A stretch of DNA of 64,000 nt, taken from an uncultured Acidobacteriota bacterium (GTDB lineage Bacteria; Acidobacteriota; Thermoanaerobaculia; Gp7-AA8). The DNA lies in NCBI GenBank assembly GCA_963822445.1, contig CAWGHO010000002.1:1472001-1536000 (forward strand), written 5' to 3'. Positions 1,636 to 48,594 of the stretch are shown piece by piece. Below the pieces are notes generated by a model, which did no database searches, was not told the origin of the DNA, and saw nothing but the letters and a program-made list of their open reading frames with translations. Position numbers and translations under genes: made by a program. Position 1 is the first letter of the stretch. Each line of letters begins with the position of its first letter.

Positions 1636-1665
1636 TTGACCTCCGCCCCCCATCCTCACTAAACT
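1636..1665 (+). promoter_or_regulatory. Putative sigma70 promoter of the fur operon
   Basis: TTGACC (1636-1641), 18-nt spacer, TAAACT (1660-1665). Confidence 0.55.
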
Positions 1666-1674
1666 CCCTTTCGC

Positions 1675-1694
1675 TACTGAGACTCAGTCTCAAC
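1675..1694 (+). promoter_or_regulatory. Putative Fur-family operator (7-1-7 palindrome TGAGACT-C-AGTCTCA)
   Basis: Perfect inverted repeat at 1678-1692 between the promoter and the fur ATG. The same 20-mer occurs upstream of bfd (47950-47969, minus strand). Confidence 0.75.
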
Positions 1695-1709: not shown

Positions 1710-2210
1710 ATGCCACAACTCGAACGGGAGATCGGACGGTTCCAGGACTTCCTACTGCGGCAGGGGCTCAAGCTCACCACCGAGCGGTCGGCCCTCGTGC
1801 GCGAGATCTTCTCCATCCACTACCACTTCGAGGCCGACGAGCTGCTCTTCAAGATGAAGCAGAAGGGCCTGAAGATCTCGCGGGCCACGGTCTACCGCAC
1901 CCTCGAGCTCCTGGTGAAGTCGGGGATGGTCCGCCGCGTCCACCTCGGCGAAGAGCACTACCACTACGAGCACGTCACCGGAAACTCGCACCACGATCAC
2001 CTGATCTGCACGACCTGCGGCGGCGTGATCGAGTTTCACGACGAATTGCTCGAGCAGCGTCAGCGCGACATCTGCGAGAAGAAGAAGTTCACCCCCACCT
2101 TTCACAACCTTCAGATCCTCGGCGTCTGCGACTCCTGCACGCGCAAGGGAGAACGCCCCGTGACGCCCGATCGCGTCTCCATGATCAGCGCCACCCGATT
2201 GAGGAAATAA
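1710..2210 (+). CDS. fur: Fur-family transcriptional regulator
   Basis: Real start MPQLERE inside track ORF 756..2210. Motifs ISRATVYRTLELL, HHDHLICTTCG, CDSC. Confidence 0.92.
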   Translation: MPQLEREIGRFQDFLLRQGLKLTTERSALVREIFSIHYHFEADELLFKMKQKGLKISRATVYRTLELLVKSGMVRRVHLGEEHYHYEHVTGNSHHDHLICTTCGGVIEFHDELLEQRQRDICEKKKFTPTFHNLQILGVCDSCTRKGERPVTPDRVSMISATRLRK

Positions 2211-2213
2211 CGG

Positions 2214-2981
2214 ATGCTCCAGGCTCTCATCATCGTCTTCCGCGAAGGGTTCGAGTCGTTTCTGACCGTCGCGATCATCTTCGCGTACCTCAAGAAGACC
2301 GGCCGTGACTGGCTGCGTCCCGCGGTGTGGTGGGGCATCGGCATGTCGATCGTCGCCAGCGCGCTCCTCGGCTGGTGGCTGCAGCGCGTGAATCAGCCGC
2401 TCTGGGAAGGCGTCCTCGCTCTCGTGGCCGCGGTGCTGGTGGCGAGCTTCGTCATTCACATCTGGCGCGTCGCGCCGCAGATGAAACGGGAGATGGAGCA
2501 GAAGCTCGAAGTGCAGGCCTCGAAAGGCTCAACGCCCTTGGCGTGGCTGGGCGTCTTCGTGTTTACCCTGCTGATGATCACGCGCGAGGGGATGGAGACC
2601 GCGCTGATGCTCATCCAGGTCGGCAACATGCCGCGCTTCTGGCTCGGTTGCGCACTCGGCCTCGCCGCCGCGGCGTCAATGTCCTGGCTCTGGGCGCATT
2701 ACGGCCATCGCATCAACGTGAAACGCTTCTTCCAGGTCACCGGTCTCTTCCTGCTCCTCTTCACGGTGCAGATCCTCTTCTACGCGATTCATGAGTTTTC
2801 CGAGGCGGAGATCCTTCCGAACTGGGAAGCGATTCACACCGCGACCGAGCCGTACACGCCGGATGGCCCGTACGGGCTGTGGATCATGTTCGGAATGGTT
2901 GCGATCTGTGCCGCCTGGCTCGCAGGCGTCACCGCGCTGGATCGGATGAGAAACCAGCGAAGACTCATCGAGCAGCCATGA
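2214..2981 (+). CDS. FTR1/EfeU-family iron permease
   Basis: Two REGxE motifs (FREGFES, TREGMET) and about 7 TM helices. Confidence 0.92.
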   Translation: MLQALIIVFREGFESFLTVAIIFAYLKKTGRDWLRPAVWWGIGMSIVASALLGWWLQRVNQPLWEGVLALVAAVLVASFVIHIWRVAPQMKREMEQKLEVQASKGSTPLAWLGVFVFTLLMITREGMETALMLIQVGNMPRFWLGCALGLAAAASMSWLWAHYGHRINVKRFFQVTGLFLLLFTVQILFYAIHEFSEAEILPNWEAIHTATEPYTPDGPYGLWIMFGMVAICAAWLAGVTALDRMRNQRRLIEQP

Positions 2982-3745
2982 ACCCCGCGGCGATCCTCAT
3001 CGCCGCCACGCTCGCGCGCTACCTCATGGGGACGGTGTGCGAGATCGAGGCGGAGAAACCGGAGCAGATCGAGATCGCGTTCGCGGAAGCGAAGCGGGTC
3101 GAAGCGATGCTCAGCACGTGGACGGATGAGAGCGAGCTGTCACGTGTGAACCATGGCGCAGTTCCCTCGCCGGAGTTGCGGGCGCTGCTCGATACGACGC
3201 TCGATTGGGCGACGCGCACCGATCGTGCGTTCGATCCGCGAATTGCACACTTGCTGGAACGAACGCGCGATAAAACGAGTGAGGAAAGTTTCGAAGAAGG
3301 CGCATTCGGCAAGGGCTACGCGCTCGACCGCATGCTCGTCCTCCTCGACGGCGAAGCCCTGATCAACTTCGGCGGCCAGATCATCGTTCGCGGCAAACGC
3401 GACGTCAGCGTGGCCGATCCCTCCGATCGCGACCATCCCGTGCTCGCGCTCACCCTCGCCGACGCGTCGCTTTCGACGAGCGCCGGCGGCCACATCCTCG
3501 ATCCCCGCACCGGCCAGTCGCTGCCAGGTCGCGGATCCGTTTCTGTCATCGCGAAGGACGCGCTCACCGCGGACATCCTCTCCACTGCCCTCTACGTGAT
3601 GGGCAAGAACGAAGGTCTCCGCTGGGCGGCCGCTCACGACGTCGCCGCGATTTTCATCGACACGAACAACACCATCCGGTTGTCGCCCGCCGCTCGGAAG
3701 CTCGACGTGGCGGTGCTCGACCGAGACTTTTCAATCAAGGACTGA
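2978..3745 (+). CDS. apbE: FAD:protein FMN transferase (ApbE family), compact
   Basis: Motifs MGT, SELSRVN, AFDP, KGYALD, INFGG, HILDPRTG, ADILSTA. ATG 2978 overlaps the FTR1 stop. Confidence 0.88.
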   Translation: MNPAAILIAATLARYLMGTVCEIEAEKPEQIEIAFAEAKRVEAMLSTWTDESELSRVNHGAVPSPELRALLDTTLDWATRTDRAFDPRIAHLLERTRDKTSEESFEEGAFGKGYALDRMLVLLDGEALINFGGQIIVRGKRDVSVADPSDRDHPVLALTLADASLSTSAGGHILDPRTGQSLPGRGSVSVIAKDALTADILSTALYVMGKNEGLRWAAAHDVAAIFIDTNNTIRLSPAARKLDVAVLDRDFSIKD

Positions 3746-3747
3746 CG

Positions 3748-5082
3748 ATGTTGAAACGACTCACAATCATCACCCTCGCTCTCGTGCTCTCCACGAGCGC
3801 ATTCGCCCAGGACGCATCCGATCTCGAGCGCCGCCTCCGCGCGCTGGAAGAGAAGATCGCCGGCATGCAGCAGACTCCGGACCTCGCCGAGATCCGCCGC
3901 CAGATCGAGATCCTCGGCCAGGAAATCGAGGCCCTCAAGACCCCCGCAGCGCAGCAGGCAACCGTCTCCGCCGACGCGGAGCAGTACGGACTCGGCGCCG
4001 CCGCCTCGAAGGTCTATCGCGTCGATCACGGCCTCTCGTTCGGCGGCTACGGCGAGATGCTCTACGAGAACTACGCCGGCACGATCGACTCCGGCGCGCG
4101 CGCAACCACGCGCGACCAGTTCGACATGCTCCGCGGCATTCTCTACACCGGCTACAAGTACAACGACAAAGTCATCTTCAACTCCGAAATCGAGTACGAG
4201 CATGGCTCGACCGGTTCGGGTGGCGAGGTCTCCGTCGAGTTCGCGTATCTCGACTTCCTCGCGCGTCCGCAGCTCGGTGTGCGCACCGGTCTCGTGCTCA
4301 TTCCGATGGGACTCCTGAACGAGCTCCACGAGCCGACCGCGTACCTCGGCGCGAAGCGTCCGGTCACCGAGAACGCGATCATTCCGTCGACCTGGCGCGA
4401 AATGGGCGCGGGCGTCTTCGGCGAGATGGGGCAGTTCAGCTGGCGCGGCTACGTCGTGAACAGCCTGAACGGCCGCAACTTCACCGCGGGCGGGGTGCGC
4501 GGCGGACGGCAGAAGGGTGCCCGCGCGCTCGCCGAAGATCTGGCGTTCACCGGTCGCGTGGATTGGCAGCCGCTCGTCGGCACGACCGTCGGCGCGTCGT
4601 TCTTCAGCGGCAACACCGGCCAGAGCAATCTGGTGAACAACACCGTCGTCGACGCGCGTTACACGGTTTACGACGTCCACGCCGATGCGCGTTTTCGCGG
4701 CGTGATCCTGCGCGGGCTCTGGTCGCGCGGATCGCTCGATGACGCGGCGGAGCTGAACGTACTGAACGGCCTGACCGGCAATCGCTCGGTCGGAAAGACG
4801 ATGGGCGGCTGGTACGCGGAAGCGGGCTACGACCTCTCCTCGCTGCTGCCGTTCGGCGAGACGTCCTTCACGCCGTATGCGCGATACGAGCAGGTCGACA
4901 CGCAGCGCACGGTTCCGGCGGGCTTCCTCCGCAATCCCGCGAACGAGCAGACGATCTTCACCTACGGCCTGCAGTTCAAGCCGCTCCCTCAGACGGTGTT
5001 CAAGGTCGACTATCAGAACGTCGACAACGAGGCGGGAACGGGCCTCGATCAATGGAACCTCGGCATCGGCTACATCTTCTGA
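3748..5082 (+). CDS. Outer-membrane porin-like beta-barrel (OprO/P-like) with N-terminal coiled coil
   Basis: Signal peptide (AFA|Q), coiled coil, FNSEIEYEHG, EFAYLD, LNELHEPT, IIPSTWRE, C-terminal LGIGYIF beta-signal. Confidence 0.8.
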   Translation: MLKRLTIITLALVLSTSAFAQDASDLERRLRALEEKIAGMQQTPDLAEIRRQIEILGQEIEALKTPAAQQATVSADAEQYGLGAAASKVYRVDHGLSFGGYGEMLYENYAGTIDSGARATTRDQFDMLRGILYTGYKYNDKVIFNSEIEYEHGSTGSGGEVSVEFAYLDFLARPQLGVRTGLVLIPMGLLNELHEPTAYLGAKRPVTENAIIPSTWREMGAGVFGEMGQFSWRGYVVNSLNGRNFTAGGVRGGRQKGARALAEDLAFTGRVDWQPLVGTTVGASFFSGNTGQSNLVNNTVVDARYTVYDVHADARFRGVILRGLWSRGSLDDAAELNVLNGLTGNRSVGKTMGGWYAEAGYDLSSLLPFGETSFTPYARYEQVDTQRTVPAGFLRNPANEQTIFTYGLQFKPLPQTVFKVDYQNVDNEAGTGLDQWNLGIGYIF

Positions 5083-5126
5083 GCGGGCACGGCCCGCTGC
5101 GTAGGTTTCTGCGCCTTGCGGCACAG

Positions 5127-5708
5127 GTGCTCGAGGTGTCCGGATCGCGGCTTCGAGCGGCGCAACGCGCCTGGCATCGTGGCCTCCGGACCGGTTTTCT
5201 GATCGCGATTTTCGCGATTGCGGCGGCGGCGCACGCGCGCGTCTTCATGACGCAGAAGCAGGCGCTCGCCTCCGCGTTCCCGGCGGGGACGGTCGTCACC
5301 CGCCAGGCCATTTTTCTCAAGCCCGCGCAACTCGACGCCGCTCGCAAACAGAGCGGCGTCGAGTTCAAGGACCAGTTGATCGTCCGCTACACCGGCACCT
5401 CCAACGGCCGCGTCGCCGGTTACGCCTACTTCGATACGCACCTGGTGCGCACGCTCCAGGAAACGGTGATGGTCGTGGTCACGCCGGAAGGAAAGGTCGA
5501 TCGCATCGACATCCTCTCCTTCAACGAGCCGCAGGACTATCTGCCGAAAGAACGCTGGATGGATCAGTTCGAAGGCAGGAAGCTCGATGACGATCTCTCG
5601 CTCAAGCGCTCCATCCGCCCAATCTCCGGCGCGAGCTTGAGCGGCCGCGCGATCGTCAACGCATCGCGCAAAGTACTGGCGCTGCATCACGTCATCGGAA
5701 CGAAATGA
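5127..5708 (+). CDS. Extracytoplasmic FMN-binding protein (flavinylation substrate); start uncertain
   Basis: Signal-like LIAIFAIAAAAHA, FNEPQDY, WMDQFEG and the flavinylation motif ISGASLS ([S/T]GA[S/T]). Confidence 0.8.
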   Translation: MLEVSGSRLRAAQRAWHRGLRTGFLIAIFAIAAAAHARVFMTQKQALASAFPAGTVVTRQAIFLKPAQLDAARKQSGVEFKDQLIVRYTGTSNGRVAGYAYFDTHLVRTLQETVMVVVTPEGKVDRIDILSFNEPQDYLPKERWMDQFEGRKLDDDLSLKRSIRPISGASLSGRAIVNASRKVLALHHVIGTK

Positions 5709-6130
5709 GCCGCCTCCAACTGGCCTGGCTGCACCTGTCGCTCGGCCTGACCGCGCTCACAGGAATCGTGTTCGCGGCGATGAAGTACCTGCTCGAAAGC
5801 AAGGACGAGTTCGCGGTCGCCAATCATCCGCTCCAGCCGTTCATGCTCAGCGCGCACGTGGTCATCGCGCCCATCGCCCTCTTCATCCTCGGCTGGACGT
5901 TCTCGAATCACATGCTTCCCAAGCACCGCTTCGGCGACGACACAGGTCGCAAAAGCGGCACCGGCGCGATGTGGCTGATCGTGCCGATGACCCTCAGCGG
6001 CTATCTGCTGCAGGTGTCAGTGGATGAGACGCTGCGGCAGGCGATAGCGGTCGCCCACTGGATCAGCTCGGGATTGTTCGTGATCGCGTACGTCGTGCAT
6101 TTACTGAAGCGAACGGATCAATCGATCTAA
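5705..6130 (+). CDS. Four-TM membrane protein with intramembrane His (putative cytochrome b / DUF4405-like)
   Basis: Four hydrophobic helices with His in SAHVV, SNHML, VAHWI and VVHLL. ATGA overlap with the FMN-binding gene. Confidence 0.6.
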   Translation: MSRLQLAWLHLSLGLTALTGIVFAAMKYLLESKDEFAVANHPLQPFMLSAHVVIAPIALFILGWTFSNHMLPKHRFGDDTGRKSGTGAMWLIVPMTLSGYLLQVSVDETLRQAIAVAHWISSGLFVIAYVVHLLKRTDQSI

Positions 6131-7480
6131 CCGCGACAACGTCTTCTCTTTCCCCAACACCACCGCGACGTCGAAGATCGGCGGCGATGCGCCGCGGCCG
6201 GTCAGCGCGAGCCGAAGCGGATGAATGAGCTTCGCCGCCGAGACGCCGCGTGATTCCGCGAGCGCGCGCAGAGCAGCTTCAGTCGTCGTCACATCGAACG
6301 GCTCGGTCTTCGCCAGCGTTTCGTGAAGCTCCGTCAATCGCGCGCCGAGGTCGTCGCCTTTCAGATGTTTCTTCGAGGCATCGGCGTCGTACTCGAAGTC
6401 GTCGCTCAGGAACGGCTCCATCCCCGCGGCAACTTCGCGCAGCGTGCGTCCGCGCGACTTGTTCAACTCGATCACCGCACGCAACTCCTCGAGCGGCCGC
6501 GCGCGGTCGCCGAGAAACGGCATCAGGTGCGGGTAGATCTCATCGGCAGTCATGCGCATCAGGTACTGGCCGTTCATCCACAGAAGCTTCTCTTCGTCGA
6601 AGACCGCCGGCGCTTTGTTCACGTCGCTCAGATCGAAGACCTGCGCGGCTTCGTCGCGGGAGATCAGCTCGCGGTCGCCCCCTGGGTTCCAGCCGAGGAG
6701 GGTGAGGAAGTTGAAGAGGGCGGCGGGGACGATGCCCATGTCCCGGTACTCCTCGGCCGAAGTCGCGCCGCTGCGCTTCGAGAGGCGCTTGCGGTCGCTG
6801 CCGAGGATGAGCGGGAGATGAGCGAAGACGGGGACGGCCGCGTCGAACGCGCGGAAGAGCAGGATGTGCTTCGGCGTGTTCGACAGGTGATCGTCGCCGC
6901 GCGCGACATGGGTGATGGCCATGTCGATGTCATCGACGACGACGGACAGGTGATACGTGGGATTGTTGTCCGAGCGGAGAAGGACGAAGTCGTCGATCAG
7001 TTCCCCTTCGAACCGGACGTCGCCGCGGATCAGATCGTGAAACTCGATCGGCCCGGGTGTGACGAGCATGCGGATCACGTGCGGCGCGTCGAGACGTTCG
7101 CCCGTCGCGCGGCAGCGGCCGGAGTAGCGATAGGCCTCGCCCTTCGCCTCCACCGCCGCCCGCTCGGCCTCGAGCTCCTCGACGGTGCAGTAGCAGCGAT
7201 AGGCCTTGCCCGCGTCGACGAGCTCGTTCGCGCGGGATCGATAGCGGTCGAGACGGTCGCTCTGGTAGACCGGACCTTCATCCCACTCCACGCCGAGCCA
7301 TTGCAGCGACGCGACGATCTGCTCCGCATGATGCTGTTTCGAGCGCTCGACGTCCGTGTCCTCGATGCGCAGCAGCATCGTGCCGCCGTAGTGCCGGGCG
7401 TGCAGCAGGTTGAAGATCGCCGTGCGCGCGCCGCCGACGTGTAGGAATCCGGTAGGGGATGGGGCAAAACGAAGTTTCAT
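6101..7480 (-). CDS. gltX: Glutamate--tRNA ligase
   Basis: RFAPSPTGFLHVGG (HIGH), LRIEDTD, RGDDHLSNT, RLSKR (KMSKS) and an anticodon-binding C-terminal domain. Confidence 0.95.
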   Translation of the reverse strand: MKLRFAPSPTGFLHVGGARTAIFNLLHARHYGGTMLLRIEDTDVERSKQHHAEQIVASLQWLGVEWDEGPVYQSDRLDRYRSRANELVDAGKAYRCYCTVEELEAERAAVEAKGEAYRYSGRCRATGERLDAPHVIRMLVTPGPIEFHDLIRGDVRFEGELIDDFVLLRSDNNPTYHLSVVVDDIDMAITHVARGDDHLSNTPKHILLFRAFDAAVPVFAHLPLILGSDRKRLSKRSGATSAEEYRDMGIVPAALFNFLTLLGWNPGGDRELISRDEAAQVFDLSDVNKAPAVFDEEKLLWMNGQYLMRMTADEIYPHLMPFLGDRARPLEELRAVIELNKSRGRTLREVAAGMEPFLSDDFEYDADASKKHLKGDDLGARLTELHETLAKTEPFDVTTTEAALRALAESRGVSAAKLIHPLRLALTGRGASPPIFDVAVVLGKEKTLSRLDRLIRSLQ

Positions 7481-7520
7481 CGTGGGATTTGTAGTCTATC
7501 GCGCGGGATAAACTGCAGTG

Positions 7521-7913
7521 ATGCGCCGACAGGATGGCTTCTCGCTCGCCGAGCTGCTCATGGCGATGCTCATCCTGACCATCGTCATCACCACCTCCAT
7601 GGCCGCCTTCCTGGAGCGCAATCGCCGGCAGCAGCAGGCCCGGGAGATCATCGCCGCCTACCAGGCCCTGGCGAACGAGGCCGAGTACTGGCGGCGGATT
7701 CCCTTCAACGACCTCGACAAGCCACAGGAGCACCACTTCCGCAGCGATCTCGCCATCCTCAACTCCCTCGGCACCTACAACACCGTCGTCGCGGTGGCGC
7801 CGGTCGAGCCGACCATCAGAAAAGTGACCCTCACCGTCCGCTGGGCGGAAGGGAAGCGGCAGGCGCGGCTGGGCGTCGTGCGGGTCGACACCGGAGGCTC
7901 GAGCCTGTGGTGA
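7521..7913 (+). CDS. Prepilin-type N-methylation domain protein (minor pilin/pseudopilin)
   Basis: RRQDG|FSLAELL class III signal with Glu5. Confidence 0.85.
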   Translation: MRRQDGFSLAELLMAMLILTIVITTSMAAFLERNRRQQQAREIIAAYQALANEAEYWRRIPFNDLDKPQEHHFRSDLAILNSLGTYNTVVAVAPVEPTIRKVTLTVRWAEGKRQARLGVVRVDTGGSSLW

Positions 7914-8419
7914 GCCGCCGGCGGGAGAAGGGCTACACCCTCGCGGAGATGGTCGTGTCCGTGGCCGTGTTCGGGGTGATCGTGGCCGTCTTCTCGATTC
8001 TCGCGGCGGAGATGCGCGCGCATCAGGCGCGGCTGCCGGTCAACTTCATGCGCCATCCGCAGGTGTCGGCGGTGATCTCGCGCGTGCGGCGCGACGTACA
8101 GGACTCGAAAGGGCACTACGAGAACAACTACGACGGCTACACCGCGGCGGCGGACGTCCTGATCGTGGAGACGCTTCACGAGGTCGGCGGCGTGCGCATG
8201 ATCGTCTGGGATTTTCGCGAGCCCGGTGTCGCGCGGCGGCGGTCGTACAACGTCGGGGTGTTCACTGAGTGGGTCGCGCGCGGATTGCCGGAGTCGGCAT
8301 CGTTCGATGTGAAGGCGGTCGGCTTCCCCGGCAGACCGTGGGGTGTGCGGCTGCGAATTCAAGACGCGGAGGGACGGCTTGCGATCGATCAGATCCTGCA
8401 ACCTCGCGCGCACAAGTAA
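7910..8419 (+). CDS. Prepilin-type N-methylation domain protein (PilW/GspJ-like)
   Basis: RREKG|YTLAEMVV. GTG start overlaps the upstream stop. Confidence 0.85.
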   Translation: MSRRREKGYTLAEMVVSVAVFGVIVAVFSILAAEMRAHQARLPVNFMRHPQVSAVISRVRRDVQDSKGHYENNYDGYTAAADVLIVETLHEVGGVRMIVWDFREPGVARRRSYNVGVFTEWVARGLPESASFDVKAVGFPGRPWGVRLRIQDAEGRLAIDQILQPRAHK

Positions 8420-8822
8420 TCAGCGCGGCTTCGCGTTGCTCTGGGCCATCGGCCTGGCCGTTCTCTTCTTCATGCTCATCGAGCTGATGCTCATCGACTC
8501 CGCGCGCGAGCTGAAGGAAGCGCAGCGATTCCGCTCGCGGATGGTGGCGATGGTGCTGGCGGAGAACGGAGCAGAGCTGGCCGCGTTACGAATCGCCGAC
8601 GCCAACAGGCAGTTTTACGACCCCGATCCGGCCACGGACTGGCAGGGAACGATCGACGGGCGGATGGACAAGAACGAGCAAGCCGGCACATTCGTGATCA
8701 TCGGCAGCGGCGTGACCGCGGGTACGGAACGGACGAAAGCCGAGGTGCGGGTGGAGGGGTATGTCGAAGGGACGGCGCCGGCGGCGAACATCGTAATCTC
8801 GTTCACCAGGCACGCGCCATGA
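8343..8822 (+). CDS. PilX/GspK-like minor pilin (start uncertain, possibly TTG near 8379)
   Basis: NQRG|FALLWAIGL lacks Glu5; also carries LAENGAELA. Both are typical of PilX/GspK N-termini. Confidence 0.7.
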   Translation: MCGCEFKTRRDGLRSIRSCNLARTSNQRGFALLWAIGLAVLFFMLIELMLIDSARELKEAQRFRSRMVAMVLAENGAELAALRIADANRQFYDPDPATDWQGTIDGRMDKNEQAGTFVIIGSGVTAGTERTKAEVRVEGYVEGTAPAANIVISFTRHAP

Positions 8823-9465: not shown

Positions 9466-10029
9466 ATGAGCTTCGTACCGACCACCGCGCTGTTGCCCGC
9501 CGTCGCGCGAGGCGACGTCTCGGCCTTCGAGGCGCTGTACGACCGCCATGCCTCCACGATCTACGCCCTGCTGCTGCGCATCCTCTGCAACGCCGACGAC
9601 GCGCAGGAGGTCCTGCAGGAGACGTTCGTGAAGGCCTGGTCGAGCGCGAAGATGTTCGACGCGGTCCGTGGAAGCGAGATCGCCTGGCTGATCTCGATCG
9701 CCCGCAGCCGCGGCATCGATCGCCTGCGCTCGCGCAAGATTCGCGGCGAGCGTGAAGACGAAGCCGGCCGGGAGATCTCGATCCGCTCGAGCTTCATCGA
9801 TCGCAACACCGGCGCGGACTTCGCCATCCAGTCGCAGGAGCGGGTCGCCGTTCGCGGCGCGCTTTCCGAGCTGCCTGAAGCGCAGAGGATCGCGCTGGAG
9901 CTCGCGTATTTCGAAGGGCTGTCGCAATCGGAGATCGCCGCGCGCCTCGGCGAGCCGCTCGGAACGATCAAGACCCGCATGCAGCTCGGCATGAAGAAGC
10001 TGAGGGACCGGCTGCAGGCTTTTCAATGA
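9466..10029 (+). CDS. ECF sigma-70 factor (SigK-like)
   Basis: AFEALYDRH, DAQEVLQETFVKAW, region 4 LELAYFEGLSQSEIA...LGTIKTR. Confidence 0.92.
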   Translation: MSFVPTTALLPAVARGDVSAFEALYDRHASTIYALLLRILCNADDAQEVLQETFVKAWSSAKMFDAVRGSEIAWLISIARSRGIDRLRSRKIRGEREDEAGREISIRSSFIDRNTGADFAIQSQERVAVRGALSELPEAQRIALELAYFEGLSQSEIAARLGEPLGTIKTRMQLGMKKLRDRLQAFQ

Positions 10030-10727
10030 CGCACGCAGACTTCGAATCGATCGCGGCGCTGGATGTTCTCGGCGCGGCCACGGCGGGTGAGGCGGGCGCC
10101 CTGCGTACGCACCTTCTGGCGTGCATCCCCTGCCGGCGGGCCCGCGACGAGTATGCCGACGCCACGACTTTCATCGCCCTCGGCCTGGAACCTGTTGCGC
10201 CGCCGCGCGAGTTGCGCGCGCGAGTAGCCAGCGCTGTGGAGCGCGAGGGCAGAAAGAGCGATCGCTGGTGGCTGGCTGTCGCGGCAACCCTGTTTCTTGG
10301 ATTGTGGGGCTGGCGCGAGGCGAGCGTTCGCAAGGAGCTCGATCAGCTCAGATTTCGAAACGAGAAACTGTCGTCCGAGATCGCCGCCATGGCCTCTTCA
10401 GCGCGCACGATCGAGTTGACCGGCCAGGAAGTCGCGCCCACCGCTTCGGCGAAGGTATTCATCCAACCGGATCGCCGCCGCGCGCTGGTGTTCTTCCACG
10501 ACCTGCCCGTCAATGCCGCGGACAAGAGCTACCAGCTCTGGATCATTCGCGGCGATCAGCCCGTGAGTGCCGGAGTGTTCGACGTCGGTGCCGACGGTCG
10601 CGCGTCTCTGTCCGTCGAGAACCTGCCCGTGGACACGGAGATCAAAGGTCTGGCGGTGACGCTCGAGCCGAAGGGCGGCGTGGCGCAGCCGACGAACACG
10701 CGGTTCATCGTGGCGGGGAACACCTAG
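10026..10727 (+). CDS. Anti-sigma factor (RskA family, N-terminal HxxxCxxC)
   Basis: HLLACIPC, one TM, YQLWII, AVTLEPKGG..PT. Translationally coupled to the sigma gene. Confidence 0.9.
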   Translation: MTHADFESIAALDVLGAATAGEAGALRTHLLACIPCRRARDEYADATTFIALGLEPVAPPRELRARVASAVEREGRKSDRWWLAVAATLFLGLWGWREASVRKELDQLRFRNEKLSSEIAAMASSARTIELTGQEVAPTASAKVFIQPDRRRALVFFHDLPVNAADKSYQLWIIRGDQPVSAGVFDVGADGRASLSVENLPVDTEIKGLAVTLEPKGGVAQPTNTRFIVAGNT

Positions 10728-47227: not shown

Positions 47228-47704
47228 TCAGCTCTCTTCGCGGATCTGCTGCGCGAGGTAGTTCTGCGCGCCGACCTGATCGATCAGCGCGAGCTGCGCC
47301 TCGATCCAGTCGACGTGCTCTTCTTCATCCTCGAGAATCTCTTCGAGCAGATGGCGGCTGTTGTTGTCGCCGAGCTCGCGGCAGGTCTCGATGCCCTTGT
47401 TCAGGCGCGGCAGGGCATGCATCTCCAGCGCGAGATCGACTTTCAGAATCTCGGGGACGTTCTCGCCGATGTTGATCTTGTCGAGCTTCTGCACGTTCGG
47501 GATGCCGTCGAGGAAGAGCACGCGCTCGATCAGTTCCTCGGCATGTTTCATCTCGCCGATGGAATGCTTGCGGATGACTTTCTGCAGCCGCTCGTAGCCC
47601 CAGTTCTCGCACATCTCCGCGTGCACGAAGTACTGGTTGATGGCGGTGAGCTCGGCGGTGAGAACGTCGTTGAGGATGTCGATGATGCGTTTGTCGCCTT
47701 TCAT
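47228..47704 (-). CDS. bfr: Bacterioferritin
   Basis: MKGD, ELTAINQYFVH, EMKHA (heme Met), EEEHVDW, NYLAQQI. Confidence 0.95.
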   Translation of the reverse strand: MKGDKRIIDILNDVLTAELTAINQYFVHAEMCENWGYERLQKVIRKHSIGEMKHAEELIERVLFLDGIPNVQKLDKINIGENVPEILKVDLALEMHALPRLNKGIETCRELGDNNSRHLLEEILEDEEEHVDWIEAQLALIDQVGAQNYLAQQIREES

Positions 47705-47714
47705 GGGCGCAACG

Positions 47715-47939
47715 CTACACCATCGCGGGCTGAGCGGTATCGGCGGGCGTGGTGCAGGCCGGGCAGGCTTCGGCCGAGGCAGCGGCGGCACGGGCGAGCA
47801 TTCCGCGCAGGGCGTTGTGGCAGGAGCCGCATTGATCGCCGATGCCGCACCGCTGAAGGTCGCGCAGCGACGACGCGCCGGCGTCGATCAGTTTGTTGAT
47901 CTCGCGGTCGGATTTGCCTCGGCAGATGCAGACGATCAT
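47715..47939 (-). CDS. bfd: Bacterioferritin-associated ferredoxin
   Basis: MIVCIC...QCGSC, immediately upstream of bfr. Confidence 0.88.
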   Translation of the reverse strand: MIVCICRGKSDREINKLIDAGASSLRDLQRCGIGDQCGSCHNALRGMLARAAAASAEACPACTTPADTAQPAMV

Positions 47940-47949
47940 GTTCGGTTCT

Positions 47950-48003
47950 GTTGAGACTGAGTCTCAGTACGTGCATCATCCCGCGTTCTTTTCCTTTCGT
48001 CAA
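47950..48003 (-). promoter_or_regulatory. bfd promoter (TTGACG-17-GATGAT) with putative Fur-family operator
   Basis: 7-1-7 palindrome at 47952-47966; the 20-mer is identical to 1675-1694. Confidence 0.72.
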
Positions 48004-48057: not shown

Positions 48058-48594
48058 GTGAAACGTCTTCTGGCTCTTACACTTACGTGTCTTTTCTGGA
48101 GTCTCGGCGCGTCGGCCGAGCTCCGTCTCGAAGTCGACCTCTCCGATCGTCTATTGCGGGCCATCGTCGATGGCGAAGTGGTCCGCGAATACGCCGTTTC
48201 GGTGGGCAAGGACAAGTACCCGACCCCCGTGGGCGCATTCAAGGTTCGCAAAGTAGTCTTCAATCCGGCGTGGAAGCCGCCCGACTCGAAATGGGCGAAA
48301 GGCAAGACCGCCAAGCCGCCCGGGCACCCCGAGAATCCGATGAAGCTCGTGAAGATGTTCTTCCGCGAGCCCGACTACTACATCCACGGCACCGACGACG
48401 ACGACTCCCTCGGCGGAGCGGAATCGCACGGCTGTATCCGGATGAATACGGCGGACGTCGAGGAGCTCACGCGGCTGGTGATGGAGCACGGCGGCAAGCC
48501 GATGCCCGAGCCCTGGTACCGGCGGATCTTCCGCAGAAAGACGACGAAGGTCGTGTATCTGGAGATGGCCGTGCCGATGGAGATACGGAGTTAG
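48058..48594 (+). CDS. L,D-transpeptidase (YkuD family)
   Basis: Signal peptide, VSVGK...TPVG, YYIHGT...ESHGCIRM. Confidence 0.92.
   Translation: MKRLLALTLTCLFWSLGASAELRLEVDLSDRLLRAIVDGEVVREYAVSVGKDKYPTPVGAFKVRKVVFNPAWKPPDSKWAKGKTAKPPGHPENPMKLVKMFFREPDYYIHGTDDDDSLGGAESHGCIRMNTADVEELTRLVMEHGGKPMPEPWYRRIFRRKTTKVVYLEMAVPMEIRS

Follow-up and report, generated by a model that had tools for sequence, protein, structure and literature searches.

A Fur-associated operon with flavin transferase, porin and small membrane protein genes in an uncultured Acidobacteriota bacterium: a candidate system for reductive iron uptake

Acidobacteriota rank among the commonest bacteria of soil, and there is little experimental knowledge of how they acquire iron. 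A compact operon in an uncultured member of the phylum raises the question of whether one route might combine a flavoprotein, a small membrane cytochrome and a porin. The operon lies near the start of a 64,000-nucleotide (nt) stretch of DNA (GenBank assembly GCA_963822445.1, contig CAWGHO010000002.1, positions 1,472,001–1,536,000 of the forward strand; hereafter the window). Between positions 1710 and 6130 of the plus strand, six co-oriented genes encode a Fur-family regulator, an FTR1-type iron permease, an ApbE flavin transferase, a porin, an FMN_bind protein and a small protein with four transmembrane helices (TM4). The initial annotation of this stretch had read these genes as a flavinylation-based reductive iron-uptake system, and that interpretation, as far as sequence analysis reaches, is supported by every computational test that was run. 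A Fur-repressed operon for reductive iron uptake is the function that we consider probable, with considerable room left for doubt.

In this scheme, periplasmic ApbE would form a covalent bond between flavin mononucleotide (FMN) and Ser170 of the FMN_bind protein. TM4 would hold two b-type haems, one between H69 and H132 on the cytoplasmic side and the other between H51 and H118 on the periplasmic side, and would move electrons from a membrane pool, probably quinol, over the inner membrane to the flavoprotein (quinol to inner haem, outer haem, covalent FMN and finally Fe(III)). Soluble or weakly chelated Fe(III) would enter via the dedicated 16-strand porin, and the FMN protein would either reduce it to Fe(II) or free the iron from its ligand by reduction. 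The Fe(II) would then be imported by the adjacent inner-membrane transporter, FTR1 here and FeoAB or ZIP elsewhere, while iron-replete Fur on a palindrome past the −10 element would silence the operon, its own gene included. From the gene content, conservation, folds, motifs and operator distribution observed, we infer the cofactors, the direction of electron flow, the substrate and the regulation; the first three steps draw on protein families, folds and context, the fourth on neighbourhood swaps and the last on the distribution of the operator.

The first matter to settle is which of the six genes belong together. They are tightly packed as the initial annotation had described, with junctions consisting, in order, of a 3 nt gap, an ATGA overlap, a 2 nt gap, a 44 nt gap and a second ATGA overlap. 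All six are syntenic in nine of nine sufficiently long contigs of the same genus (L014–L018, L020–L023), and the 11 short loci examined (L002–L012, of which L003 comes from a genome marked unpublished) all have the porin–FMN_bind–TM4 trio. A scan of genome contigs with a single protein gave just 11 close relatives; a TM4 profile detected the gene, always as a single copy, in 108 of the 401 Acidobacteriota genomes sampled, representing 68 of 228 genera, both tallies taking in three genomes marked unpublished. Loci anchored on TM4 were then compared in 31 families (45 loci: 40 chosen from the 108 matches, one to three per family with a preference for matches far from contig ends, and five from the search for closer relatives). 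Counted with hidden Markov models built from our own alignments, TM4 is present at 45 of these loci, FMN_bind at 44, the porin and ApbE at 39 each and all four at 35. A second set, anchored on the porin, was taken from metagenomes (80 loci kept of 570 confirmed). Here, the FMN_bind gene follows the porin gene wherever at least 650 bp of downstream sequence is available (62 of 62 loci), TM4 is next in line at 46 of the 52 with at least 1250 bp downstream and ApbE is present at 35 of the 38 with room on both sides; its position varies, either before the porin or after TM4. Fusion of TM4 to ApbE was seen in seven of 13 longer TM4 relatives checked.

Beyond the module, the flanking genes differ from family to family (151 of 201 flagged flanking open reading frames were scanned; the 50 omitted comprise five from L025, which were scanned separately, the flanks of L034 and others that are shorter or farther from the module). 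Since the four-gene set recurs while its flanking genes change between families, the conserved system is ApbE–porin–FMN_bind–TM4, and Fur and FTR1 are exchangeable additions. With synteny throughout the genus and recurrence of the four-gene core across the phylum, the arrangement is far beyond chance. Co-occurrence across 31 families also answers the concern, voiced at the outset, that the genes might not be found together elsewhere.

Several variants of the module were encountered. The fusions (P0130, P0152, P0160, P0172, P0179, P0184 and P0198; 474–531 residues) have TM4 at the N-terminus and a full ApbE at the C-terminus, and in a further protein, P0231, TM4 is linked to an outer-membrane barrel domain of the Phenol_MetA_deg type, perhaps an artefact of gene calling. 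At L060 (10990–13599, minus strand) an outer-membrane protein of FadL/Toluene_X type stands in the porin's place beside ApbE, FMN_bind and TM4, and at L030 (7920–9029, plus strand) a second ApbE gene lies beside the module on the opposite strand.

The neighbours of the module bear on its substrate. Among the 45 TM4-anchored loci, Fur adjoins the module at 20, FeoB with a DtxR/FeoA gene at seven, NifU-type Fe–S genes at three, a pair of ZIP transporters at two, and P19 (L049) and Rrf2 at one each; a ferritin gene stands immediately 3′ of TM4 at two (one listed at L027, 9478–10041, plus strand). The neighbourhood that the initial annotation had proposed to survey, FTR1 together with ApbE, FMN_bind and porin, thus recurs in its last three members, accompanied by TM4, while FTR1 itself is adjacent at just four of the 45. 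In the bacterium's own family the slot between fur and apbE holds either FTR1 (L033, L034) or FeoAB (L032). Where a metagenome locus extends at least 3.5 kb upstream (39 loci), Fur was found at 18, FTR1 at ten and FeoB at four, and a recurrent variant has FTR1 divergent from fur (e.g. L079, L093, L102, L151). The ZIP pairs are two tandem genes divergent from the porin gene (L036, 11870–13457; L066, 11933–13444). Because FeoAB and ZIP are non-oxidising Fe(II) importers that interchange with FTR1, these swaps are the best available evidence that the product of the module would be periplasmic Fe(II).

The own genome (6.0 Mb, 94.7% complete) has a single ApbE, a single FMN_bind and a single FTR1 gene, all within the operon, and the FMN_bind protein would therefore be the only FMN_bind-type client of ApbE. 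The usual partners of FTR1 had been described as missing from the operon, and in the genome as a whole neither P19 (PF10634) nor EfeO (Peptidase_M75, PF09375) was found at this level of completeness; EfeB was not searched for. FeoB was likewise not found there with a FeoB protein query (22.6 bits at best). Matches to FeoB_N in the genome were rejected as generic GTPases, as the control profile matches 14 of 14 genomes.

A different account, the main rival to reductive uptake, reverses the flow of electrons. Following Fet3/Ftr1 or the proposed FtrABCD, the module would be an electron sink for a ferroxidase-type FTR1, with Fe(II) oxidised at the permease and the electrons passing via FMN and cytochrome b to the quinone pool. 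The classical tie of the FTR1 family to Fe(II) oxidation speaks for such a mechanism, as do the failure to find P19 and EfeO in the genome and a locus at which FTR1 is fused to an FtrD-like membrane iron–sulfur domain (PF10080; L030, 16112–17404, minus strand). However, the module lies beside FeoAB at seven of the 45 loci and beside ZIP at two, importers that take up Fe(II) without oxidising it, most loci have no FTR1 at all, and protein-bound FMN is, as general knowledge has it, normally of low potential and a poor acceptor of electrons from Fe(II). We regard oxidation in this direction as distinctly unlikely.

The reductive scheme also predicts control by iron, and the DNA ahead of the operon is consistent with it. 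A perfect 7-1-7 palindrome, TGAGACTCAGTCTCA, begins 13 nt past the −10 element of a promoter-like site and ends 18 nt ahead of the fur ATG; the promoter-like site is the only one between positions 1400 and 6400 (shuffled sequences average 0.5). The palindrome agrees at five of seven positions per half-site with TGATAATnATTATCA, which we take to be the classical Fur box. Exact copies number only three in the entire 6.0 Mb genome, each just upstream of an iron-related operon, against a chance expectation of about 0.02–0.05 copies (14 specified bases, 6 Mb). The second, TGAGACTnAGTCTCA, lies in a divergent promoter region of the window (47952–47966). On one side of it are a small Cys-rich open reading frame and then a ferritin-like gene (47228–47940, minus strand; PF00210, E = 9.2e-39), and on the other is an exported YkuD-domain protein (48058–48594). 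The small Cys-rich frame had a Bfd-like look; Pfam gave no match at E up to 0.1 and it is left unnamed. The third copy stands roughly 30 nt ahead of a PepSY_TM gene that has a TonB-dependent receptor gene after it (G000:C1:75100–78705, also L069 412–4006; PF03929, 1.8e-53; PF00593, 4.9e-58), apparently a separate siderophore-type reductive uptake operon of the same regulon.

The palindrome is not peculiar to this genome. With at most one mismatch it precedes fur at nine of nine loci of the genus, and with up to two there are 35 matches at 25 of the 45 genome loci and 64 at 43 of the 80 metagenome loci, compared with none and one, respectively, for a reversed control pattern. Where fur is not adjacent, the palindrome often stands directly before the apbE or porin gene; Feo-type loci often have a second copy before apbE, and the ZIP–porin intergenic regions of L036 and L066 contain a palindrome (TGAGAATCATTCTCA) that is closer to the classical Fur box. 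Together these observations offer in silico evidence for placing the module in an iron regulon, with Fur as the protein that would bind the palindrome. The second Fur-family paralogue of the genome (G000:C1:421666–421961; PF01475, 1.5e-16) has a variant palindrome, TTAGACTTAGTCTAA, ahead of its gene, which may be its own operator, implying a different metal or peroxide regulon.

Co-regulation with metal homeostasis need not mean that iron is the substrate. A periplasmic redox module with some other substrate, such as a further metal (Mn or Cu), a humic-like compound or quinone, or a target of oxidative stress, would agree with the fact that no substrate-binding site was identified, that ZIP neighbours can carry Zn or Mn, that Fur-family proteins can sense other metals and that an iron importer is adjacent at fewer than half of the loci. 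At L059, moreover, a gene for a di-haem cytochrome c peroxidase (CCP_MauG) is located inside the module, between the porin and FMN_bind genes (7402–8529, plus strand; 9635–10399, plus strand, is also listed). Against this stand the operator that the module has in common with the ferritin and PepSY_TM/TonB-receptor operons of its own genome and the repeated presence of iron-specific neighbours (FeoAB, FTR1, P19, ferritin, NifU). A substrate other than iron therefore seems unlikely to us.

If the module reduces iron, its proteins should be fit for the parts assigned to them. A scan against Pfam and NCBIfam placed five of the six genes, TM4 through sub-threshold matches only, and left the 444-residue product of the fourth without a match (Table 1). 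The regulator scores 112.7 bits against a PF01475 cut-off of 23.1; the NCBIfam models that it matches best are Fur equivalogs, and it falls short of the cut-off of each (e.g. 89.2 against 220), so that its specificity for iron rests on context, in a genome with two Fur-family genes including this one. The permease (99.5 bits against 25.3 for PF03239) has both of the REGxE motifs attributed to it, which read REGFE and REGME in the translation, and matches the NCBIfam EfeU family NF041756 at E = 6e-38, under the family cut-off. The ApbE gene start is uncertain (ATG 2978 or GTG 2879). For the FMN_bind protein GTG 5127 is more likely than ATG 5052, which falls inside the porin gene, because a start past the porin stop at 5082 yields an N-terminus that by eye resembles a signal peptide, with a basic stretch, a hydrophobic stretch and a terminal AHA. 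Long antisense reading frames (e.g. 3634–5124, minus strand) were rejected as genes, all homology being on the plus strand. On the minus strand gltX converges on the operon and overlaps its last gene by 30 nt.

Table 1. Features of the operon and its promoter region (window coordinates)
Feature	Position	Strand	Basis
Sigma-70-like promoter, TTGACC, 18 nt, TAAACT	1636–1665	+	Consensus match only
Palindrome TGAGACTCAGTCTCA, 15 nt, 7-1-7, likely Fur operator	1678–1692	.	Repeat sites before iron operons
Fur-family regulator, 166 residues	1710–2210	+	PF01475, 1.5e-32
FTR1/EfeU-type iron permease, 255 residues, two REGxE motifs	2214–2981	+	PF03239, 2.7e-28
ApbE FAD:protein FMN transferase, 255 residues	2978–3745 (alternative start GTG 2879)	+	PF02424, 8.7e-38
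Outer-membrane porin, 444 residues: signal peptide, coiled-coil N-terminal segment, 16-strand barrel, end GYIF	3748–5082	+	
FMN_bind protein, 193 residues, predicted to be exported, predicted ApbE substrate	5127–5708	+	PF04205, 23.9 bits against cut-off of 22
Four-transmembrane-helix protein (TM4), 141 residues, candidate di-haem cytochrome b, unnamed family	5705–6130	+	

Flavinylation by ApbE takes place at the motif [S/T]GA[S/T]. The FMN_bind protein contains SGAS at residues 167–170 (counted from the 5127 start), with Ser170 in the context ISGASLS, and a stretch of the form [S/T/A/V]-G-[A/G]-[S/T] is found in 31 of 31 aligned orthologues, G168 being invariant; the target motif of ApbE claimed in the initial annotation is therefore present in a putatively exported protein. 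The predicted modified position is Ser in the window protein and Thr in most orthologues. Residues D103, E134 and Q147 show no variation either, H105, R108 and T109 show hardly any, and one might speculate from this pattern that the acidic and histidine residues form a metal site. The assignment of the transferase itself also holds: ApbE scores 130.8 bits against a PF02424 cut-off of 25.6, in a match split into two stretches, and keeps the core motifs GKG, GGQ, H-ILDP-TG and AD-LST, which are invariant columns across 12 sequences and which we presume to be catalytic.

The TM4 family comprises 618 clusters at 50% identity (E up to 0.001), none informatively named; some members come from metagenome-assembled genomes labelled Planctomycetota in the source names, and its look-alike clusters in the Atlas occur most often in Acidobacteriota and Pseudomonadota. 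In 67 diverse sequences G20, H51, H69, G85, H118 and H132 are invariant, and H41 and P42 of an NHP loop nearly so (64 and 65 of 67). The two intramembrane histidine pairs of the initial annotation are thus conserved, with the correction that they consist of H51/H69 and H118/H132; H10 is found in only 30 of the 67. Conservation of these four histidines throughout the sample removes one way in which the haem proposal might have failed. In the AlphaFold2 model (predicted local distance difference test, pLDDT, 96.4), TM4 forms a bundle of four helices, the second of which carries H51 and H69 and the fourth H118 and H132. Loop 71–86 averages 4.72 Lys and Arg per sequence and the C-terminal tail 3.12, compared with 0.36 (and 1.99 Asp and Glu) in loop 29–43; since these counts obey the positive-inside rule, both termini would be cytoplasmic, and H51/H118 are predicted to lie close to the periplasmic face and H69/H132 close to the cytoplasmic one. 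In the model this placement is consistent with the arrangement expected for two stacked bis-His haems.

In a structural comparison of the TM4 model (VIA), a designed bundle with two haems ranks first (PDB code 7ah0_A, Z = 12.8), and the best natural matches are HyaC (4gd3_A, Z = 11.2 over 135 residues, root-mean-square deviation 4.5), FdnI (1kqg_C, Z = 11.1 over 130 residues, root-mean-square deviation 3.4), cytochrome b6 (7r0w_I, Z = 11.0) and CybB (5oc0_A, Z = 10.3). FdnI, HyaC and CybB (PF01292) are, like TM4 in its model, four-helix transmembrane bundles. In proteins of their type the four histidine ligands are on helices 1, 2 and 4, whereas in TM4 helices 2 and 4 each bear a pair of the invariant histidines, in the manner of the cytochrome b of bc1, and TM4 has no dehydrogenase partner. 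Foldseek gave no match to the TM4 model at E up to 0.001, with a TM score of 0.66 to HyaC.

For the porin (residues encoded at 3748–5082), no Pfam family was matched at E up to 0.01, Porin_O_P (PF07396) included, and no NCBIfam family. The outer-membrane barrel that had been proposed is nevertheless recovered in the AlphaFold2 model (pLDDT 86.7), in which 16 strands follow a helical, coiled-coil-like N-terminal segment, and Foldseek relates this model to OmpT, OmpU, OmpM1, OprP and OprO at E values of 2e-13 to 6e-12 (2e-13 to 4e-13 for the first four) with a probability of 1.0. The best of these (E = 2.4e-13) places it with the 16-strand, trimeric-type porins of the OmpU/OmpC/OprP fold; its Atlas look-alikes are named porins, with PF07396 in 19–47% of the members of some clusters. 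Among 8,000 candidates scored, the family takes in over 5,309 proteins (E up to 0.001). Within the clade, an alignment of 34 sequences of 42–77% identity leaves 53 of the 444 columns without variation, among them nine acidic, two His and eight basic residues in motifs such as GGYGE, NSExExEH and NELHEP. So constrained a clade is unusual, which suggests a specific rather than a general channel.

Such constraint invites a stronger version of reductive uptake, which we offer as possible but doubtful. The porin would be an iron-selective channel working directly with the flavoprotein, Fe(III) would be reduced at its periplasmic mouth and the FMN protein would be wired to the quinol pool via a minimal four-helix di-haem cytochrome, giving a trans-envelope pathway independent of TonB and siderophores into which Acidobacteriota and, by source names, Planctomycetota could plug FTR1, FeoAB or ZIP. 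Both core parts of it, the porin clade and the cytochrome, would come from undescribed protein families. The constant company of porin and redox proteins, with FMN_bind at every one of the porin-anchored loci that could be judged, might instead hint at a conduit for dissimilatory or extracellular electron transfer, a porin–flavoprotein analogue of porin–cytochrome complexes that respires Fe(III) minerals. A single small FMN domain (about 155 mature residues) with no multi-flavin or multi-haem wire hardly fits such a conduit, an OmpU/OprP-type 16-strand porin is on general grounds too narrow for a protein, and the Fur-type operator and the linkage to importers and ferritin suit assimilation better. 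Elsewhere among bacteria, flavinylated proteins do take part in extracellular electron transfer, as the main text of Meheust et al. describes (2021; eLife, PMC8238504); we nonetheless consider mineral respiration by this module highly improbable.

A number of observations weigh against reductive uptake through these components. FTR1-type permeases are classically coupled to the oxidation of Fe(II) and not to the reduction of Fe(III). Fewer than half of the loci have a recognisable iron importer beside the module; among the metagenome loci with sufficient upstream sequence, FTR1 or FeoB was found at just 14 of 39. The FMN_bind protein barely exceeds its Pfam cut-off, although a search of the genome gave 25.9 bits. 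ApbE lacks profile positions 86–127, about 40 in all, and also a 12-residue stretch found in most orthologues; because a genus-level orthologue (L034) shares part of the deletion we read it as natural variation, and it may still be a risk for function. At six of the 52 metagenome loci examined for it, TM4 is replaced by an unrelated membrane protein. The replacement is a His-bearing reading frame of about 170 residues (L079, 7274–7780, plus strand; also L083, L086, L106, L120 and L145), with no detectable relation to TM4 (hhalign probability 0.1) and no Pfam match, which may be an alternative electron carrier.

Further points on the same side concern TM4. Its Z scores of 10–11 are no higher than helical bundles can attain by chance, so that the structure prediction called for at the outset delivered a four-helix bundle with a histidine pair on each face and left the fold consistent with a di-haem cytochrome b without being decisive. 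Its score for PF01292 is 18.6 bits against a cut-off of 30.1, no Pfam threshold being reached, and a TM4 profile found no relative among PDB sequences (best E = 0.82). The histidine pairs are also asymmetric, since the spacing is 18 residues on helix 2 and 14 on helix 4. Across the family, PF01292 appears in ten of 67 members and DUF4405 (PF14358) in three (E up to 0.01), in each case below the cut-off, and DUF4405 does not appear in the window protein. With scores under the cut-offs and no sequence relative in the PDB, TM4 is treated here as a candidate cytochrome b of an unnamed family outside PF01292 and DUF4405.

How much of this has a counterpart in the literature? Full-text searches found no published description of the porin, FMN_bind and four-helix module. 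The main text of Meheust et al. (2021) mentions neither Acidobacteria nor porins nor DUF4405, and its supplementary tables might list such clusters. That text describes 260 P19 and FTR1 clusters with an FMN_bind gene, mostly in Gram-positive bacteria and without a core transmembrane electron-transfer component, and proposes for them a role in redox-assisted iron assimilation. They resemble the operon described here in combining FTR1, ApbE and an FMN_bind protein, exported there and predicted to be so here, in one cluster; here, in contrast, the porin and TM4 are integral, P19 was not found and FTR1 can be exchanged for FeoAB. The same main text proposes PepSY-like and MsrQ-like assimilatory iron reductases. 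These too pair a di-haem membrane protein with an ApbE-flavinylated periplasmic protein and a ferrous importer, sometimes under Fur control (the PepSY-like ones being of the FoxB/VciB type), features of which the haem and flavin are predicted in the present case. Their membrane proteins belong to PF03929 and PF01794 instead of an unnamed four-helix family, the flavinylated partner is DUF2271 instead of FMN_bind, the importer is VIT1 instead of FTR1, Feo or ZIP, and a dedicated porin, present here, does not form part of them as described. None of PF03929, PF16357 and PF01794 was detected among the six operon genes; the PepSY_TM gene lies elsewhere in the genome.

The closest parallels to TM4 come from Huang et al. 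(2024; mSystems, PMC11334425), who show that haem b is bound by DUF4405 and FezC, which are found alongside apbE in Proteobacteria and Firmicutes. In their account DUF4405 is a six-helix transmembrane family of those phyla, paired with Flavodoxin_4, and FezC, which is ferrosome-associated, is linked to iron. Like TM4, these are small membrane proteins encoded next to apbE whose four histidines are the most conserved residues and which are proposed as transmembrane electron carriers. TM4 differs from DUF4405 in having four transmembrane helices, in its FMN_bind and porin partners and in its occurrence in Acidobacteriota and, by source names, Planctomycetota. Genetic evidence comes from Bifidobacterium breve, where Lanigan et al. 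(2017; PMC5449479) report that bfeUO-sifABCDE, which includes the FMN-binding SifE, is induced by iron limitation and is required for growth under iron chelation. There, an FTR1-family permease is likewise encoded beside a cluster with an FMN-binding membrane-associated protein; this Gram-positive bacterium differs in having BfeO (EfeO-like) and an ABC transporter, and its cluster, as described, includes no porin, four-helix His protein or Fur gene. The suggestion that the six-part architecture had not been characterised holds to the extent that no description of it was found, and loses some of its novelty to the FMN_bind, FTR1 and P19 clusters and to DUF4405, which are already in print.

Should the scheme be correct, the module would be a widespread route for iron, judging from the 108 of 401 genomes and 618 clusters in which TM4 is found, that requires neither siderophores nor TonB. 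TM4 would be the fifth kind of membrane electron carrier in flavinylation-linked systems, after the NapH-, MsrQ-, PepSY- and DUF4405-like proteins, and its length of only 141 residues would make it an appealing minimal system in which to study electron transfer across a membrane. Two unnamed families, the porin clade and the candidate cytochrome b, would each receive a first function. The exchange of FTR1 for FeoAB bears on whether bacterial FTR1 permeases require coupling to iron oxidation, and the 15 nt palindrome provides a testable candidate for the Fur box of Acidobacteriota.

Upstream of the operon, positions 28–1542 of the window encode a phosphodiesterase/sulfatase-like domain fused to TPR repeats, and a related genus has this gene ahead of the operon as well (L033, 2370–4769).

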